From a virus (lineage: Duplodnaviria; Heunggongvirae; Uroviricota; Caudoviricetes), in IMG/VR virus record IMGVR_UViG_2778261646_000019: a stretch of DNA of 20,417 nucleotides. One strand, given 5' to 3'. This document shows, piece by piece, positions 5,803 through 14,443 of this stretch (the first letter of the stretch is position 1; every line of letters begins with the position of its first letter). A program made the translations under genes and the position numbers. The notes below the pieces were generated by a model, which saw only the letters and a list, made by a program, of their open reading frames with translations, did not search any database and was not told the DNA's origin.

Positions 5803-6267
5803 ATGAAGTTTGTTGCGCCAGAACAGGCACCGGAACAGGCGGAAATCATCAGGAATACGCCGTTCTGGCCTGATGTGGATCTGTCGGAGTTCCGCAGTGT
5901 GATGCGCACTGACGGTACGGTGACGCAGCCGCGTTTAAAGCAGGTTGCGCTGTCGGCAATTTCGGAGGTCAACGCAGAGCTGTATGAGTTTCGCAGATGC
6001 CAGCAGATGCTGGGGTATGCCTCGCTGGCAGAGGTTCCGGCGGAACAGCTGGACGGCAAAAGTGAGCGCATTCAGCACTATTTCAACGCGGTTTACTGCT
6101 GGGCACGCGCCATGCTCAACGAACGTTACCAGGACTATGACGCCACGGCATCCGGTGTGAAGCGGGGCGAGGAACTGGCGGAAGCCAGCGGTGATTTATG
6201 GCGTGACGCCCGCTGGGCCATCAGCCGGGTACAGGACGCGCCGCACTGCACAGTGGAGCTTATCTGA
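5803..6267 (+). CDS. L: Head completion/stabilisation protein (P2 gpL-like)
   Basis: Track ORF 5740..6267; the internal ATG at 5803 is preceded by AGGAGAAAG and is the likely start (MKFVAPEQ...). Stop overlaps the X start (ATGA). Confidence 0.8.
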   Translation: MKFVAPEQAPEQAEIIRNTPFWPDVDLSEFRSVMRTDGTVTQPRLKQVALSAISEVNAELYEFRRCQQMLGYASLAEVPAEQLDGKSERIQHYFNAVYCWARAMLNERYQDYDATASGVKRGEELAEASGDLWRDARWAISRVQDAPHCTVELI

Positions 6268-7986: not shown

Positions 7987-8119
7987 CGGTGATCTGAATG
8001 CGTTGCTGGATGAAACGGAGGCCGCCTGGGCGGTCTGTGCAGACAAAGTGGACATGATTATTGCGTGTCAGGAGCGAAACAGTGAACAAACCACAATCCC
8101 TGCGCCACGCCCTCAATAA
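7829..8119 (+). CDS. lysC: o-spanin lipoprotein (Rz1-like, P2 LysC-like), embedded out of frame in lysB and overlapping R
   Basis: Starts at a GTG; signal peptide with lipobox LSGC (MRTRIYATGLILLCLLTLSGC...), Pro-rich C-terminus; typical embedded spanin architecture. Confidence 0.65.
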   Translation: MRTRIYATGLILLCLLTLSGCGNVRHSPEVQLTVSGCPRVTPCRLEQAAPRTNGDLNALLDETEAAWAVCADKVDMIIACQERNSEQTTIPAPRPQ

Positions 8120-8513
8120 AGCGGTGCCTTATGTCCGCAATAACCCGGACAAACTGCATCTGTTTGTGGATAACGGTTCGCTGGTTGCCACGGGGGCCAG
8201 CTCCATGTCATGGGAGTACCGCTACACCCTGAACGTGGTGATTGAGGATTTCAGCGGCGACCAGAATCTGCTGATGGCCCCGGTTTTGCTGTGGCTGCGT
8301 GATAACCAGCCCGATGCCATCAATAACCCGGCGTTACGGGAAAAGCTATTCACCTTTGAGGTGGATATTCTGCGCAACGATGTCTGTGATATCAGCCTCA
8401 ACCTGCAACTGACGGAGCGTGTGCTGGTCAGCACTGACGGCAGTGTGTCGAGCGTTGAAGCTATAGCGGAACCTGATGAACCTGAAGAAATGTGGACGGT
8501 GAAACGTGGCTGA
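8082..8513 (+). CDS. R: Tail completion protein (P2 gpR-like)
   Basis: Track ORF 8061..8513 begins at a TTG; the GTG at 8082 has an AGGAG RBS 7 nt upstream and is the likely start. The sequence (KPQSLRHAL...FVDNGS...YTLNVV...LTERVLVS) matches my recollection of P2 R. Confidence 0.8.
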   Translation: MNKPQSLRHALNKAVPYVRNNPDKLHLFVDNGSLVATGASSMSWEYRYTLNVVIEDFSGDQNLLMAPVLLWLRDNQPDAINNPALREKLFTFEVDILRNDVCDISLNLQLTERVLVSTDGSVSSVEAIAEPDEPEEMWTVKRG

Positions 8514-10850: not shown

Positions 10851-11448
10851 TCTGCTGCCACCGGGTTCAACACCACTGGAGTGCCGACTGGCGCAAACCT
10901 GCAGCGGGATTTCTGATCTGCAGGTGCCGCTTCGTGATTTGTGGAATCCGGCAACCTGTCCGGTCAGTTTCCTGCCTTATCTCGCCTGGGCGTTCTCTGT
11001 GGATCGCTGGGACGAGGGCTGGACAGAAAGCGTCAAGCGCCAGGTGGTGAAGGATGCTTTTTATATTCATCAGCATAAAGGGACCACCAGTGCCGTGCGG
11101 CGGGTGGTGGAGCCGTTCGGATTCCTGATCCGCATTATTGAGTGGTGGCAGACCGGAGAAACACCGGGCACGTTTCGCCTGGATATCGGCGTGCAGGACC
11201 AGGGCATCACTGAAGATACCTATCTGGAACTTGAGCGACTGATAAGCGATGCCAAACCATGTAGCCGCCACATGATCGGCATGTCCATCAATCTGCAGAC
11301 CAGCGGCCCGCATTGGGTGGGAGCCGCCAGCTATCTTGGCGAAGAAATCACGATCTATCCGTATATCAACGAAACGATTATTTCCGGTGGCACCGCGCAT
11401 GAAGGCGGGGCGGTCCATGTTATTGACACAATGAGAGTGAATCCATGA
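10843..11448 (+). CDS. I: Baseplate/tail fibre attachment protein (P2 gpI-like)
   Basis: 201 aa; between J and H, with overlapping start and stop codons on both sides. Confidence 0.8.
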   Translation: MNSLLPPGSTPLECRLAQTCSGISDLQVPLRDLWNPATCPVSFLPYLAWAFSVDRWDEGWTESVKRQVVKDAFYIHQHKGTTSAVRRVVEPFGFLIRIIEWWQTGETPGTFRLDIGVQDQGITEDTYLELERLISDAKPCSRHMIGMSINLQTSGPHWVGAASYLGEEITIYPYINETIISGGTAHEGGAVHVIDTMRVNP

Positions 11449-12524
11449 GCACAAAATTTTATACCCTGCTGACGGATATTGGCGCGGCGAAACTTGCCAG
11501 CGCCGCCGCGCTCGGTGTGCCGCTAAAAATTACCCATATGGCGGTGGGCGATGGCGGTGGAGTATTGCCAACGCCGGACGCAAAGCAGACGGCACTGGTA
11601 AATGAGAAACGCCGGGCTGCGCTGAATATGCTTTATATCGACCCGCAGAACAGCAGCCAGATTATTGCCGAACAGGTGATCCCTGAAAACGAGGGCGGTT
11701 GGTGGATACGTGAAGTGGGCCTGTTTGATGAGTCAGGTGCATTGATTGCCGTGGGCAACTGCCCGGAAAGCTATAAGCCGCAACTGGCTGAAGGTAGCGG
11801 GCGCACTCAGACCGTGCGCATGGTGCTGATTACCAGCAGCACGGACAATATCACCCTGAAAATCGACCCTGCTGTAGTGCTGGCAACCCGCAAGTATGTG
11901 GATGACAAGGCACTGGAGCTGAAGGTGTACGCGGATGATCAGATGGCAAAACATCTTGCCGCACCGGACCCGCATTCACAGTACGCGCCAAAAGCCAGCC
12001 CGACATTTACCGGAACCCCCAAAGCGCCAACGCCAGCGGCGGGGAATAATACCACGCAGGTTGCGACCACTGCGTTTGTACAGGCGGCACTGACGGCCCT
12101 TATTAATGGTGCGCCAGCCACGCTGGACACGCTGAAAGAAATAGCCGCAGCCATTAACAATGATCCGAATTTCAGTACCACCATTAACAATGCGCTGGCA
12201 CTAAAAGCACCGTTGTCGAGTCCGGCACTCACCGGAACGCCAACAGCCCCCACGGCGGCGCAGTCGGTCAACAATACACAGATTGCCACTACGGCTTTTG
12301 TGAAATCGGCGATTGCAGGAATGGTGGGTTCTGCACCTGCTGCACTGGATACACTGAACGAACTGGCGGCGGCACTGGGGAATGATCCGAACTTTGCCAC
12401 GACAATGCTTAATGCGCTGGCAGGTAAACAACCGCTGGACAATACGCTTACCAATTTGAGTGGAAAGGATGTAGCTGGTCTTCTCCCAAACCAACGTTTA
12501 AGAAAATGCAGAGGTAACAGCTAA
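11445..12524 (+). CDS. H: Tail fibre protein, conserved N-terminal part only (P2 gpH-like); truncated, ends 18 bp after a hix-like crossover site
   Basis: 359 aa against about 669 aa for P2 H. The N-terminal half matches P2 H (MAVGDGGG, ESYKP.LAEGSGR, LNELAAALGNDPNFATTM.NALAGKQP), but the ORF stops after ...LLPNQRLRKCRGNS; the receptor-binding C-terminus is absent. Confidence 0.8.
   Translation: MSTKFYTLLTDIGAAKLASAAALGVPLKITHMAVGDGGGVLPTPDAKQTALVNEKRRAALNMLYIDPQNSSQIIAEQVIPENEGGWWIREVGLFDESGALIAVGNCPESYKPQLAEGSGRTQTVRMVLITSSTDNITLKIDPAVVLATRKYVDDKALELKVYADDQMAKHLAAPDPHSQYAPKASPTFTGTPKAPTPAAGNNTTQVATTAFVQAALTALINGAPATLDTLKEIAAAINNDPNFSTTINNALALKAPLSSPALTGTPTAPTAAQSVNNTQIATTAFVKSAIAGMVGSAPAALDTLNELAAALGNDPNFATTMLNALAGKQPLDNTLTNLSGKDVAGLLPNQRLRKCRGNS
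12000..12438 (+). repeat. Tandem duplication of about 220 bp (two ~73-aa repeat units) inside the tail fibre gene
   Basis: Repeat units beginning ...PTFTGTPKAPTPAAGNNTTQVATTAFV... and ...PALTGTPTAPTAAQSVNNTQIATTAFV..., both ending in ...NDPNF.TT..NALA.K.PL; DNA similarity is visible (aatgatccgaatttcagtacc... near 12162 versus aatgatccgaactttgccacg... near 12382). Confidence 0.7.
12481..12506. other. Candidate invertase crossover site (hix/gix/cix-like, 26 bp) at the 3' end of H
   Basis: TTCTCCCAAACCAACGTTTAAGAAAA matches my recalled hixL sequence (TTCTTGAAAACCAAGGTTTTTGATAA) at 19 of 26 positions, including the AAACC-AA core; it sits 50-80 bp upstream of the invertase gene. No second copy was seen in the window. 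Confidence 0.5.
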
Positions 12525-12561
12525 CTGGCATCATCTCCGGTTTTTATTCAGGGGGATGATC

Positions 12562-13128
12562 ATGCTTATTGGCTATGTACGCGTGTCAACAAATGACCAG
12601 AACACCGATTTGCAACGTAATGCACTGAACTGCGCGGGATGTGAGCAGATTTTTGAGGACAAAATCAGTGGCACTAAGTCCGACAGACCGGGGCTGAAAA
12701 AACTACTCAGGACACTATCGGCAGGAGACACGCTGGTTGTCTGGAAGCTGGACAGGTTGGGGCGCAGTATGCGGCATCTTGTTACGCTGATAGAAGAGTT
12801 GCGCCAGCGTGGTGTGAATTTCAGAAGCCTGACTGACAGTATTGATACCAGTACCCCAATGGGCCGTTTCTTTTTTCATGTCATGGGTGCCCTGGCTGAA
12901 ATGGAACGCGAACTGATAGTTGAACGTACCAGGGCAGGGCTGGCTGCAGCTCGTGCCAAAGGCAGAGTAGGTGGACGCCGTCCTAAGTTGACCACCGAAC
13001 AGTGGGCACAGATTGGGCGTTTACTCGAGGCCGGAGAATCAAGACAGCGTATTGCACTGATTTTTGATGTAGGCGTTTCTACCATTTATAGAAAATTTCC
13101 GGCAAATAAGATCAATGAATCCCCCTGA
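12562..13128 (+). CDS. Serine DNA invertase, Hin/Gin/Pin/Cin family
   Basis: Near-identical over long stretches to my recollection of Hin/Pin (MLIGYVRVSTNDQNTDLQRNAL...GDTLVVWKLDRLGRSM...FRSLTDSIDT...MGRFFFHVMGALAEMERELIVERT.AGLAAARAKGR.GGR), with the catalytic Ser in VRVSTNDQ and a C-terminal HTH. The ATG at 12562 follows a GGGGGA RBS (the track ORF starts two codons earlier). Confidence 0.9.
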   Translation: MLIGYVRVSTNDQNTDLQRNALNCAGCEQIFEDKISGTKSDRPGLKKLLRTLSAGDTLVVWKLDRLGRSMRHLVTLIEELRQRGVNFRSLTDSIDTSTPMGRFFFHVMGALAEMERELIVERTRAGLAAARAKGRVGGRRPKLTTEQWAQIGRLLEAGESRQRIALIFDVGVSTIYRKFPANKINESP

Positions 13129-13176: not shown

Positions 13177-13194
13177 TGTGTGAATAACGACACA
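13177..13194. promoter_or_regulatory. Ogr/Delta-type late promoter site (TGT-N12-ACA) for the FI operon
   Basis: TGTgtgaataacgacACA read directly, 85 bp upstream of the FI start, in the invertase-FI intergenic region. Confidence 0.6.
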
Positions 13195-13270: not shown

Positions 13271-14443
13271 ATGGCTCAGGATTACCACCACGGGGTGCGC
13301 GTTGTTGAAGTCAACGAAGGTACCCGATCTATTACCACGGTGAGCACCGCCATCGTGGGTATGGTCTGCACGGGCGATGATGCCGATGCAAAAATGTTTC
13401 CTCTTAATAAACCCGTGCTGATCACTGATGTGCTGACTGCCAGCGGTAAAGCGGGTGAGTCAGGTACTCTGGCCCGTTCGCTGGATGCCATCGCTGACCA
13501 GGCAAAACCCGTGACCATTGTTGTGCGTGTGCCGCAGGGTGAAACGGAAGACGAAACCACGACCAATATCATCGGCGCAGTGACTGCTGAAGGTAAAAAA
13601 ACAGGTATGAAAGCCCTGTTATCTGCCCAGTCACAGCTCGGCGTTAAACCGCGCATTCTCGGCGTGCCAGGCCACGACACCAAGGCGGTAGCTACTGAGT
13701 TGCTGAGCGTGGCGCAAAGCCTGCGTGGATTTGCTTACCTGTCAGCGTATGGCTGCAAGACAGTGCAGGAGGCGATCACTTACCGCGAAAACTTCAGCCA
13801 GCGCGAAGGGATGCTGATCTGGCCTGACTTTACTGGCTGGGACACGGTGCTGAATGCCGAAGCAACGGCATATGCCACCGCCCGTGCGCTTGGTCTGCGC
13901 GCCAAAATTGACGAGCAGACCGGATGGCACAAAAGCCTGTCCAACGTGGGCGTGAACGGTGTCACCGGAATTTCTGCAGATGTGTTCTGGGATCTGCAGG
14001 ACCCGGCAACCGATGCAGGTCTGCTGAACCAGAACGACGTCACCACGCTTGTGCGTAAAGACGGTTTCCGCTTCTGGGGTTCCCGCTGCCTGAGTGATGA
14101 CCCGCTCTTTGCCTTCGAAAACTACACCCGCACGGCGCAGGTGCTGATGGACACGATGGCAGAAGCACACATGTGGGCGGTGGATAAACCGCTTAACCCG
14201 TCGCTGGCCCGCGACATTATCGAAGGTATCCGCGCCAAAATGCGCAGCCTGGTCAGTCAGGGCTATCTCATTGGTGGTGATTGCTGGCTGGATGAGTCGG
14301 TGAACGACAAAGACACGCTGAAAGCCGGAAAACTCACCATCGACTACGACTACACGCCAGTGCCGCCACTTGAAAACCTGATGCTGCGTCAGCGCATCAC
14401 CGATCAGTACCTGGTTAATTTCGCCAGCCAGGTCAGCGCGTAA
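13271..14443 (+). CDS. FI: Contractile tail sheath protein (P2 gpFI-like)
   Basis: 390 aa (P2 FI is about 396 aa); AGGAGG RBS; followed by the tube gene. Confidence 0.9.

Follow-up and report, generated by a model that had tools for sequence, protein, structure and literature searches.

Tail-fibre stub, crossover site and invertase gene

The stretch of DNA analysed here (20,417 nt; the window) comes from a P2/186-like prophage of the E. coli O7:K1 (CE10/IAI39/N32) lineage and covers the late region of that prophage. The tail-fibre gene H, encoding an N-terminal baseplate-attachment domain, lies between gene I and the sheath operon, as in the H-G module of P2-like Peduoviridae, and is joined to a crossover site, a short leader and a DNA invertase gene (Table 1).

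Table 1. Features of the tail-fibre locus and its surroundings in the window.
Feature	Position	Strand	Basis
Gene order R-S-V-W-J-I-H-...-sheath-tube-E-T			Pfam matches along the window
Truncated tail-fibre gene H, 359 aa	11445..12524	+	Translation, Pfam
Deletion junction, 6-bp microhomology CTTCTC	12480..12485	.	Overlap of left and right identity runs to N32
Crossover site of the gix/cix/pix/hix type, 26 bp	12481..12506	.	Identical to parent right site
Half-site TTCTCCCAAACC	12481-12492		Part of the site
Central dinucleotide AA	12493-12494		Part of the site
Half-site CGTTTAAGAAAA	12495-12506		Part of the site
Leader between site and invertase start, 55 nt	12507..12561	+	Identical upstream of the invertase in all relatives
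Serine DNA invertase of the Gin/Pin/Cin/Hin family, 188 aa, intact	12562..13128	+	Pfam, Gin structure matches
Candidate Fis-dependent recombinational enhancer	12583..12646	.	Motif-level match inside the 5' part of the invertase gene

The N-terminus of H (residues 1-150) matched the Phage_tail_fib domain (PF12571; E 7.6e-65), and residues 1-347 were 98-99% identical to the full-length H proteins of relatives (425-559 aa); the same start gives proteins of 465 and 516 aa in N32 and CE10, respectively. The original prediction had the H reading frame passing through a 26-bp hix/gix-like site and stopping 18 bp later, and these coordinates were confirmed: the frame reads through TTCTCCCAAACC-AA-CGTTTAAGAAAA, and the stop codon ends at 12524, 18 nt past the site. 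The product therefore consists of a constant N-terminal part (residues 1-345) followed by 14 junk residues, LLPNQRLRKCRGNS, encoded by the crossover site and by the leader DNA of the invertase, inside whose 55 nt the tail and the stop codon fall. The receptor-binding C-terminus of H is absent. A stub with neither receptor-binding domain nor chaperone would be expected to leave the prophage unable to make fibres, i.e. fibre function appears to have been lost.

Only one crossover site was detected. The 26-mer occurred once in the window even when three mismatches were allowed (0 expected from shuffles), and a relaxed gix-type pattern, allowing at most one mismatch, matched 12481-12506 alone in the 20.4-kb window. 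Neither a chaperone gene nor a variable fibre part was detected when the same 20.4 kb were searched by tblastn with 11 queries, namely six tail-fibre-assembly proteins and five others representing fibres or fibre C-termini. A second inverted site, variable fibre exons and a chaperone near the locus, which the original prediction named as marks of an intact switch, were accordingly absent from the window.

The invertase starts with an ATG at 12562 (MLIGYVRVS...), 56 nt past the end of the site, exactly as had been proposed; an in-frame ATG at 12556 would make the protein 190 aa. The site is placed relative to the invertase as in Mu, in which the spacing between gixR and gin is 55 nt, and most of 79 invertase loci from other Enterobacterales had a site 55 or 66 nt upstream. 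The leader contains a weak hairpin followed by a T-run at 12523-12542. Assignment of the protein to the Pin/Gin/Hin family as an intact enzyme was well founded: Resolvase (PF00239; E 2.2e-53, residues 3-135) and HTH_7 (PF02796; E 1.4e-15, residues 138-181) domains were both found, and the Mu Gin structures 3uj3/4m6f were matched over residues 1-184 with E 3e-93, against E 8e-34 for gamma-delta resolvase. The Ser9 nucleophile is present, MLIGYVRVSTNDQ aligns with Gin, and Hin's DNA-binding domain (1hcr) was matched with E 1.9e-9. The exact protein was found on at least 1000 public contigs.

A candidate enhancer was recognized at the level of motifs in the 5' part of the invertase gene: two 15-mers of the form G-N13-C (12583-12597 and 12632-12646), spaced by 49 bp and enclosing ATTTG and TAATG, at ~97 bp from the centre of the site. 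The spacing of the Fis sites of hin is 48 bp, against 49 bp for the candidate. In hin, the proximal Fis site is located ~100 bp from hixL, and ATTTA and TAATG lie between the two sites (PMC3798978).

Parent switch and mapping of the deletion

A search with the whole window led to E. coli N32 (NZ_CM165895.1), whose copy of this prophage has 1,863 extra bases but otherwise differs at just 5 of 20,417 nt (99.98% identity), all of them substitutions outside 12480-13128. The constant part of H, the right site, the leader, the invertase (0 nucleotide differences from N32), the sheath operon and the IS3 scar at Q are identical in the window and in the parent form represented by N32 and CE10. In this parent, the constant part of H is followed by a left site, TTCTCACATACC-TT-GGTTTGGGAGAA, and a right site, TTCTCCCAAACC-AA-CGTTTAAGAAAA, precedes the invertase; the 1,861-bp segment contains two opposed sets of an H C-terminus and a tfa chaperone, and the order in N32 is H, tfa, opposed tfaE and fibre C-terminus, and invertase. 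The 1,861 bp between the central dinucleotides of N32 are the exact reverse complement of those of CE10 (NC_017646.1), with 0 mismatches and with identical sites and flanks, indicating that the switch flipped recently in the lineage. N32 and CE10, which carry the identical invertase gene, differ by a precise inversion, and in the parent the invertase would flip the segment via exchange at the central dinucleotide. For the candidate enhancer, a stronger argument than the motif match is that DNA of identical sequence supports inversion in N32/CE10. A further relative, RM10809-3, was 99.6% identical and contained a decayed segment of 1,373 bp (1.86-kb query).

N32, CE10, RM10809-3 and A28 all have the 26-bp site of the window, base for base, as their right site. 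Because the same 26 bp form the invertase-proximal arm of the inverted repeat bounding a demonstrably inverted segment in the parent, and because of the gixR-like position, the designation as a hix/gix-like site now stands on firmer ground than resemblance.

When the junction was aligned to the intact switch of N32, which is 1,863 bp longer, the left identity run reached window position 12485, and the right run started back at 12480; both breakpoints therefore map to CTTCTC. The deleted 1,863 bp comprise the whole left site and the invertible cassette (two H C-termini and two tfa genes), in agreement with the predicted loss of the entire cassette. The two CTTCTC repeats lie at the outer edges of two similarly oriented left half-sites and correspond to their first bases and one flanking C. 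The TTCTCCCAAACC of the window corresponds to the inner half of the right site and not to the outer half of the left one. What survived is the invertase-proximal (right) site of the parent, in complete form, rather than a recombinant junction. The original view that the fibre and the invertase are joined across a single site was therefore correct in that one site remains and the cassette is gone; the surviving site is not, however, a product of crossover.

In all relatives examined, the constant part of H is followed by TTCTC[A/G]CATACC. Among 758 E. coli genomes with that H end, the best had 2 mismatches to the window, and a 31-mer joining the constant part of H to TTCTCCCAAACC had no match in 5,426 genomes. 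A hybrid site composed of the outer-left half, the core and the outer-right half was also considered and was rejected, since its left half comes from the right site, of which it is the inner part; this reading was further contradicted by the lack, among the genomes just mentioned, of the left-site variant that it requires.

From the parentage, the breakpoints, the inversion between sister strains, the lack of a partner site and cassette, and the identity of the invertase, the locus is very probably the remnant of a tail-fibre switch of the Mu G-segment type, collapsed by a single 1,863-bp deletion between CTTCTC repeats. The deletion appears to have occurred by microhomology and not by crossover at the central dinucleotide. 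The likeliest route would be RecA-independent illegitimate recombination, i.e. replication slippage or microhomology end-joining. It would have left behind the fibre stub, one complete site, and the unchanged invertase gene with its internal candidate enhancer region; because one site remains, no inversion in cis would be expected, and the locus would be locked. The mechanism is read from the scar alone.

An alternative is that the invertase itself made the deletion, either by misaligned core exchange leaving a hybrid site or by cutting the left site, followed by a repair deletion. The 6-bp microhomology is compatible with the latter (a break at the left site, resection and microhomology joining), and accidents of the invertase type were found in sister loci. 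In the complete genome of EC16 (NZ_CP189734.1), as in the window, the constant part of H is joined to the invertase module and the cassette is gone, with PGAP annotating a 'missing C-terminus'. The junction there, TTCTCACATACC/CGTTTATGAAAA (24 bp), brings together the two outer half-sites, shows no microhomology and lacks exactly the 2-bp core, and matches the blunt joining of two invertase-cleaved half-sites after loss of their 2-nt 3' overhangs; this collapse is a different, independent event that left no complete site. In AR_0013, of the same prophage lineage, the left site has recombined with a secondary site inside the sheath gene that has the central dinucleotide in common with it; the inversion is reciprocal, and the crossover falls precisely at TT/AA. 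On the other hand, a core crossover must keep TTCTCACATACC beside the constant part of H, whereas the window has TTCTCCCAAACC and an uncut, complete right site, and no left site with TTCTCCCAAACC as its outer half was present in either the 758 or the 5,426 genomes checked. In addition, the two cores, TT and AA, do not complement each other when the sites are aligned for deletion, and with serine invertases such a mismatch blocks religation. Recombination at secondary 'quasi-sites' has a precedent in Cin (Iida and Hiestand-Nauer 1986, 1987, as cited in PMC4134206), and AR_0013 behaves likewise; the junction of the window, not being anchored at the core, is no example of it. We consider it unlikely that the invertase produced this deletion, and microhomology-mediated deletion between the CTTCTC repeats is preferred.

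Occurrence of the collapsed allele and state of the prophage

The exact 359-aa H product was found on 5 contigs from NCBI and Logan assemblies, and the contig analysed here in at least 2 samples; one contig (L009, from GCA_002513485.1) was identical to the window over 7,080 nt. EC16 was the one other, independent case of a collapsed form among 5,426 complete E. coli genomes, that is, 1 in the 1,539 E. coli genomes carrying the locus. Scans of genome, viral and metagenome contig collections with a collapsed-junction pattern (the end of the constant part of H, 0-30 nt, then the right half-site and leader) gave 0 matches. No collapsed example was present among the 79 invertase loci of other species, of which only ~11 carry a recognizable H of the same type, and the phage collection contained no collapsed locus, giving partial matches alone, with the constant part of H in Klebsiella and Escherichia P2-like phages.

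A further reading is that the architecture is ancestral or alternative, an invertase and one site having been inserted beside a short fibre gene that never had a cassette; it is contradicted by the comparison with N32 and CE10, in which the cassette is seen. Non-invertible arrangements do exist in the relatives 873.10 and BE311, with the invertase beside a fixed H-tfa pair, and this does not specifically favour such an origin. The 99.98%-identical parent carries the cassette, the last 14 residues of the H frame are encoded by the site and the leader, and the collapsed form is very rare in the collections described above, making this architecture scarcely credible. At the 'fixed' loci, homology stops precisely at the core.

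Loci of this kind frequently disturb draft assemblies: in ~20 of the 79 loci from other species the contig ended at the site, 64-131 nt upstream of the invertase, and the public cluster holds many 'partial' H proteins (339-354 aa). It may be argued from this that the full switch is present and that the segment was skipped by a short-read assembler, the collapsed form being an artefact or a minority variant. This disturbance, however, takes the form of contig breaks and not of clean internal deletions, and the sole repeat at the junction (6 bp) is far shorter than any assembler k-mer. Since the truncated H product was also recovered on contigs from two sources of assemblies, and an independent collapsed locus exists in the complete EC16 genome, this explanation is very improbable.

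IS3 adjoins Q in the window (bases 1-72) as well as in CE10, N32 and IAI39, and in CE10 a truncated cII gene directly abuts IS3, indicating that the replication and late-activator region is gone. Because IS3 replaces the early region, the prophage was already dead, and it was thus defective before the cassette was lost. CE10 carries an extra 81 bp, and IAI39 carries an IS26 allele.

Orphan invertase and comparison with known switches

The deletion is so recent that the invertase gene is the parent's copy; the intact, conserved reading frame is therefore no evidence of retention by selection. The orphan invertase has probably kept both its expression and its activity. Compatible sites at other places in the genome are the sole targets through which it could matter, and such action in trans is plausible by analogy: a prophage invertase reportedly acts on the Salmonella H segment, an observation attributed to Kutsukake in 2006. 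A tentative and rather doubtful extension is that the orphan module is a live recombination element and that invertase-linked accidents are a recurrent route of fibre loss in these prophages. If so, the module (invertase, candidate enhancer and one site) could flip compatible switches that other prophages carry within that cell, or could join with secondary sites and so bring about rearrangements, and the core-less junction of EC16, the sheath inversion of AR_0013 and the core-broken 'fixed' loci would exemplify accidents of fibre loss.

The collapse itself is ordinary prophage decay of a well-known system; the system is textbook, its presence in E. coli P2-like prophages has already been published, and the import for biology at large is small. 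Its value is that of a clean worked example: one prophage lineage offers, at near-zero divergence, the parent together with its two orientations and a number of decay products, which allowed single-base mapping of the deletion and a discussion of how it arose. Annotators are given a reason for the occurrence of a 'phage tail protein, missing C-terminus' beside an intact 'recombinase family protein'. For studies on phase variation, it points to a strain that keeps an invertase but has lost the substrate of that enzyme, the situation required for asking about action in trans.

In the G segment/Gin system of Mu (also P1 C/Cin and e14 P/Pin), the constant part of the fibre is followed by a 26-bp site, the cassette, an inverted site and, ~55 nt on, the invertase. 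The site of the window shares with Mu the frame TT...AAACC-NN-GTTT...AA and, by our own count, 17 of 26 positions with gixR. Unlike Mu, the host is a P2/186-like prophage with one site and no cassette, which cannot invert. Functional switches of the Mu G, P1 C and e14 P type have two inverted sites and alternative fibre C-termini with chaperones, neither of which is found in the window; compared with the H-G module of P2-like phages, it lacks both a complete H C-terminus and the G/tfa chaperone. Invertible tail-fibre segments have been described for the P2-like prophages of EC958 (Phi2) and EPEC E2348/69, with inversion observed in culture and action in trans proposed for a prophage with a truncated invertase (PMC4134206, PMC4272514). 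The Phi2 sites given in PMC4134206, TCCTCAATTACCTT GGTTTAGGAGAA and GAGAGATAAACGTT GGTTTGGGGGAA, are of the same type as that of the window. Whereas the EC958 Phi2 and E2348/69 loci are intact switches or are devoid of the invertase, the window represents the opposite state, in which the invertase is intact and its substrate is gone.

Crossover site, invertase gene, and intact parent locus

The ORF list and the Pfam-labelled gene calls of an identical public contig showed the window to be the part of a P2/186-like prophage that holds the late genes. Portal and terminase were encoded on the minus strand; scaffold, capsid, and the lysis genes came next, followed by R, S, V, W, J, I, and H, and a recombinase gene separated H from the block of sheath, tube, E, tape measure, U, D, and ogr. 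The H ORF, of which residues 1-150 formed a tail-collar fibre N-terminal domain (Pfam), traversed a 26-bp site and stopped 18 nt beyond it. Searches allowing up to 3 mismatches gave no second copy of this 26-mer in the window, which also contained no other gix-type sequence; tblastn with tail-fibre-assembly proteins and the full-length fibres of relatives detected neither a chaperone gene nor a variable fibre C-terminus in the 20.4 kb, and matched only the constant N-terminal part of H (H-constant). When ORF ends, site, and spacings were re-read, the original prediction, with no second site or cassette, was accurate to the base.

Positions of the features in the window (no prefix) and in extracted loci of other genomes (prefix L)
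Feature	Position	Description
H ORF	11445-12524	359 aa (translation)
Crossover site	12481-12506	TTCTCCCAAACC-AA-CGTTTAAGAAAA
Invertase gene	12562-13128	ORF; start 56 nt past the site
Candidate Fis sites	12583-12597 and 12632-12646	Motif-level match; ~97 bp from site centre
TGT-N12-ACA	13177-13194	TGTGTGAATAACGACACA; between invertase stop and sheath gene
Secondary site in sheath gene	14211-14236	GCGACATTATCG-AA-GGTATCCGCGCC; used in AR_0013
CE10, 81 extra bases	L092:8082-8594	Versus window 8082-8513
CE10, IS3 locus	L096:164-1377	
IAI39, interrupted H	L094:12273-14189	
EC16 junction	L002:2537-2560	24 bp
AR_0013 junctions	L010:2537-2562; L011:~6135-6160	Both exactly at central dinucleotide
873.10 outer half-sites	L004:1337-1352 and ~2410-2425	
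BE311 outer half-sites	L006:1337-1362 and ~2485-2500	
Trabulsiella odontotermitis, H-constant homologue	L017:4787-5326	
Loci with contig end upstream of invertase	L012, L018, L020, L024, L027, L029, L035, L038, L039, L043, L044, and others	Draft genomes

The site was similar to those of Mu (NC_000929), gixL (TTATCCAAAACC-TC-GGTTTACAGGAA) and gixR (TTCCTGTAAACC-GA-GGTTTTGGATAA, ending 55 nt before gin), in both frame and position relative to the invertase, and such a site preceded the gene by 55 or 66 nt in most of 79 loci from other Enterobacterales that encode relatives of this invertase. The same type of crossover site has been published for Phi2, a P2-like prophage of E. coli EC958 (PMC4134206). 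The strongest evidence was the parent locus. Use of the entire window as query gave E. coli N32 (NZ_CM165895.1), O7:K1 CE10 (NC_017646.1), and IAI39 (NC_011750.1) at 100.0% identity (rounded to one decimal place), with extra DNA. Apart from 1,863 additional bases, N32 differed from the window at 5 of 20,417 nt, all of them substitutions and none in 12480-13128. Directly after H-constant, it carried a left site, TTCTCACATACC-TT-GGTTTGGGAGAA, followed by the H C-terminus, the chaperone gene tfa, an opposed tfaE plus another fibre C-terminus, and then the right site and the invertase; the right site was identical to the single site of the window. In CE10, the 1,861 bp between the central dinucleotides were the exact reverse complement of those in N32 (0 mismatches), with the same sites and flanks, indicating that the switch was flipped by central-dinucleotide exchange within this prophage lineage, very recently. 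The 26-bp sequence is, therefore, a genuine crossover site, as its hix/gix-like frame and position had suggested, and the proposed deletion of the invertible cassette as a whole was supported by the near-identical N32 prophage, which retained both cassette and left site.

The invertase contained a resolvase catalytic domain and HTH_7 (Pfam), and matched Mu Gin structures across 184 residues (E 3e-93) with the catalytic serine present; together with the adjacent site, these features placed it in the Gin/Hin/Cin/Pin family, and the prediction of an intact ORF held. The gene was identical to that of N32, and its leader and the region corresponding to the gin/hin enhancer were also unchanged; in hin, the distance corresponding to that of the candidate Fis sites is ~100 bp (PMC3798978).

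Deletion scar and its probable origin

The original prediction had proposed that breakpoints be mapped against an intact relative. Identity with N32 extended from the left as far as 12485 and from the right as far as 12480 and, since the two runs overlap, the breakpoints lie inside CTTCTC (12480-12485). One copy of this hexamer lies at the outer edge of the left site and the other at the inner edge of the right site, because both sites are near-palindromic; their left halves, TTCTCACATACC and TTCTCCCAAACC, respectively, are imperfect direct repeats. The deletion took the entire left site, and the right site remains complete.

An origin by crossover at the central dinucleotide was rejected: it would keep TTCTCACATACC beside H-constant, where the window has TTCTCCCAAACC. 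Every relative examined had TTCTCACATACC at this position; the best of 758 genomes with the window's H end differed from the window at exactly the two TTCTCACATACC/TTCTCCCAAACC positions, and a 31-mer demanding the window's version of the join had 0 matches in 5,426 complete genomes. Since the right site is complete and all relatives examined have TTCTCACATACC, the event was read as microhomology-mediated, without strand exchange by the invertase: illegitimate recombination between the CTTCTC repeats would have removed the segment together with the left site. Conceivably, the same scar could be produced if the invertase cut the left site and the ends were then resected. In the microhomology reading, the predicted joining of fibre and invertase over a single site stands, with the refinement that the survivor is the intact invertase-proximal site. 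A TGT-N12-ACA sequence, the kind of dyad usual in P2 late promoters activated by Ogr/Delta, lay downstream of the invertase; this candidate promoter of the sheath operon appears to have been left intact by the deletion.

The prophage had already been defective before the fibre deletion. Window bases 1-72 (up to ~130) belonged to an IS3-family transposase gene abutting portal gene Q, and this junction was common to CE10, N32, and IAI39. In CE10, the element occupied a LysR-family gene with sad and yneK on either side, and IS3 directly adjoined a truncated cII, after which came the CI repressor, a further IS, and the integrase; the replication/late-activation region is thus missing in the whole lineage. 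Because N32 and CE10 both bear the IS3 scar, their difference in orientation postdates this loss, and the invertase continued to work in a dead prophage. Compared with the window, N32, and IAI39, CE10 also had an additional 81 bases in or close to a gpR-like "phage tail protein" gene (annotated as 170 vs 143 aa).

Rarity of the collapse and other routes of decay

Pieces of a 371-nt junction query were matched in 1,539 of the 5,426 complete E. coli genomes, and were contiguous only in E. coli EC16 (NZ_CP189734.1), in which TTCTCACATACC was fused directly to CGTTTATGAAAA. This junction consisted of the outer halves of both sites: the 2-bp core was lost, and neither microhomology nor a complete site was present. 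Such a structure would be expected if two invertase-cleaved half-sites were joined after losing their 2-nt overhangs, and marks an event independent of that in the window. Pattern scans for either junction type gave 0 matches in species-representative genomes, IMG/VR, and JGI metagenomes, and 0 of the 79 invertase loci of other species were collapsed. Five public contigs carried the exact truncated H; one of them (GCA_002513485.1, NLXL01000035.1) agreed with the window at every position across 7,080 nt. As far as these searches show, the collapsed allele is undescribed and rare. The contigs of ~20 draft genomes from other Enterobacterales stopped 64-131 nt short of the invertase start, at the crossover site or just past it, and many public H proteins of 339-354 aa were labelled "partial"; both are consistent with assemblies breaking at segments present in both orientations.

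Other members of the same prophage lineage had lost or fixed the switch by other routes. In IAI39, H was interrupted by IS26, the invertible segment and invertase were gone, and a second IS26 divided the terminase gene; this is another independent loss. In E. coli AR_0013, the left site had recombined with a secondary site in the sheath gene, and the stretch thereby inverted comprised the segment, the right site, the invertase, and the sheath gene's 5' part: at one junction, H-constant and TTCTCACATACC-TT adjoined the minus strand of the sheath DNA, and the reciprocal one, TTCTCCCAAACC-AA-GGTATCCGCGCC, was located ~3.6 kb from it. The loci of E. coli 873.10 and BE311 were fixed, with a full-length H, one tfa, the invertase, and outer half-sites only; similarity to the invertase module started exactly at the core AA, and the cassette boundaries thus coincided with the crossover points. 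T. odontotermitis had an H-constant homologue on the strand opposite to the invertase, upstream of it by only 675 nt; this unusual arrangement may represent another large inversion or a different architecture.

Present function and relation to known switches

With one site and no partner in cis, the locus is locked. The receptor-binding part of H is missing and the chaperone gene is absent; since P2 fibres require both H and G, no functional fibre would be expected to form, with little consequence for a prophage unable to replicate. Members of the invertase family complement one another, and action of this invertase on compatible sites elsewhere in the genome is plausible. The Phi4 segment of EC958 was inverted despite the truncation of its own invertase (PMC4134206).

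Invertible fibre segments in P2-like E. coli prophages have already been published (PMC4134206, PMC4272514), and the value of the present locus lies in how completely, to an unusual degree, the sister states of a single prophage are represented. With the parent in N32, the flipped state in CE10, and one site left in the window, the reading as a collapsed inversion switch was supported. The locus derives from, and resembles, a switch of the Mu G type, but, unlike a functional one, has neither a pair of inverted sites nor an intervening cassette; it is the decay product of a known system and not a new kind of system.
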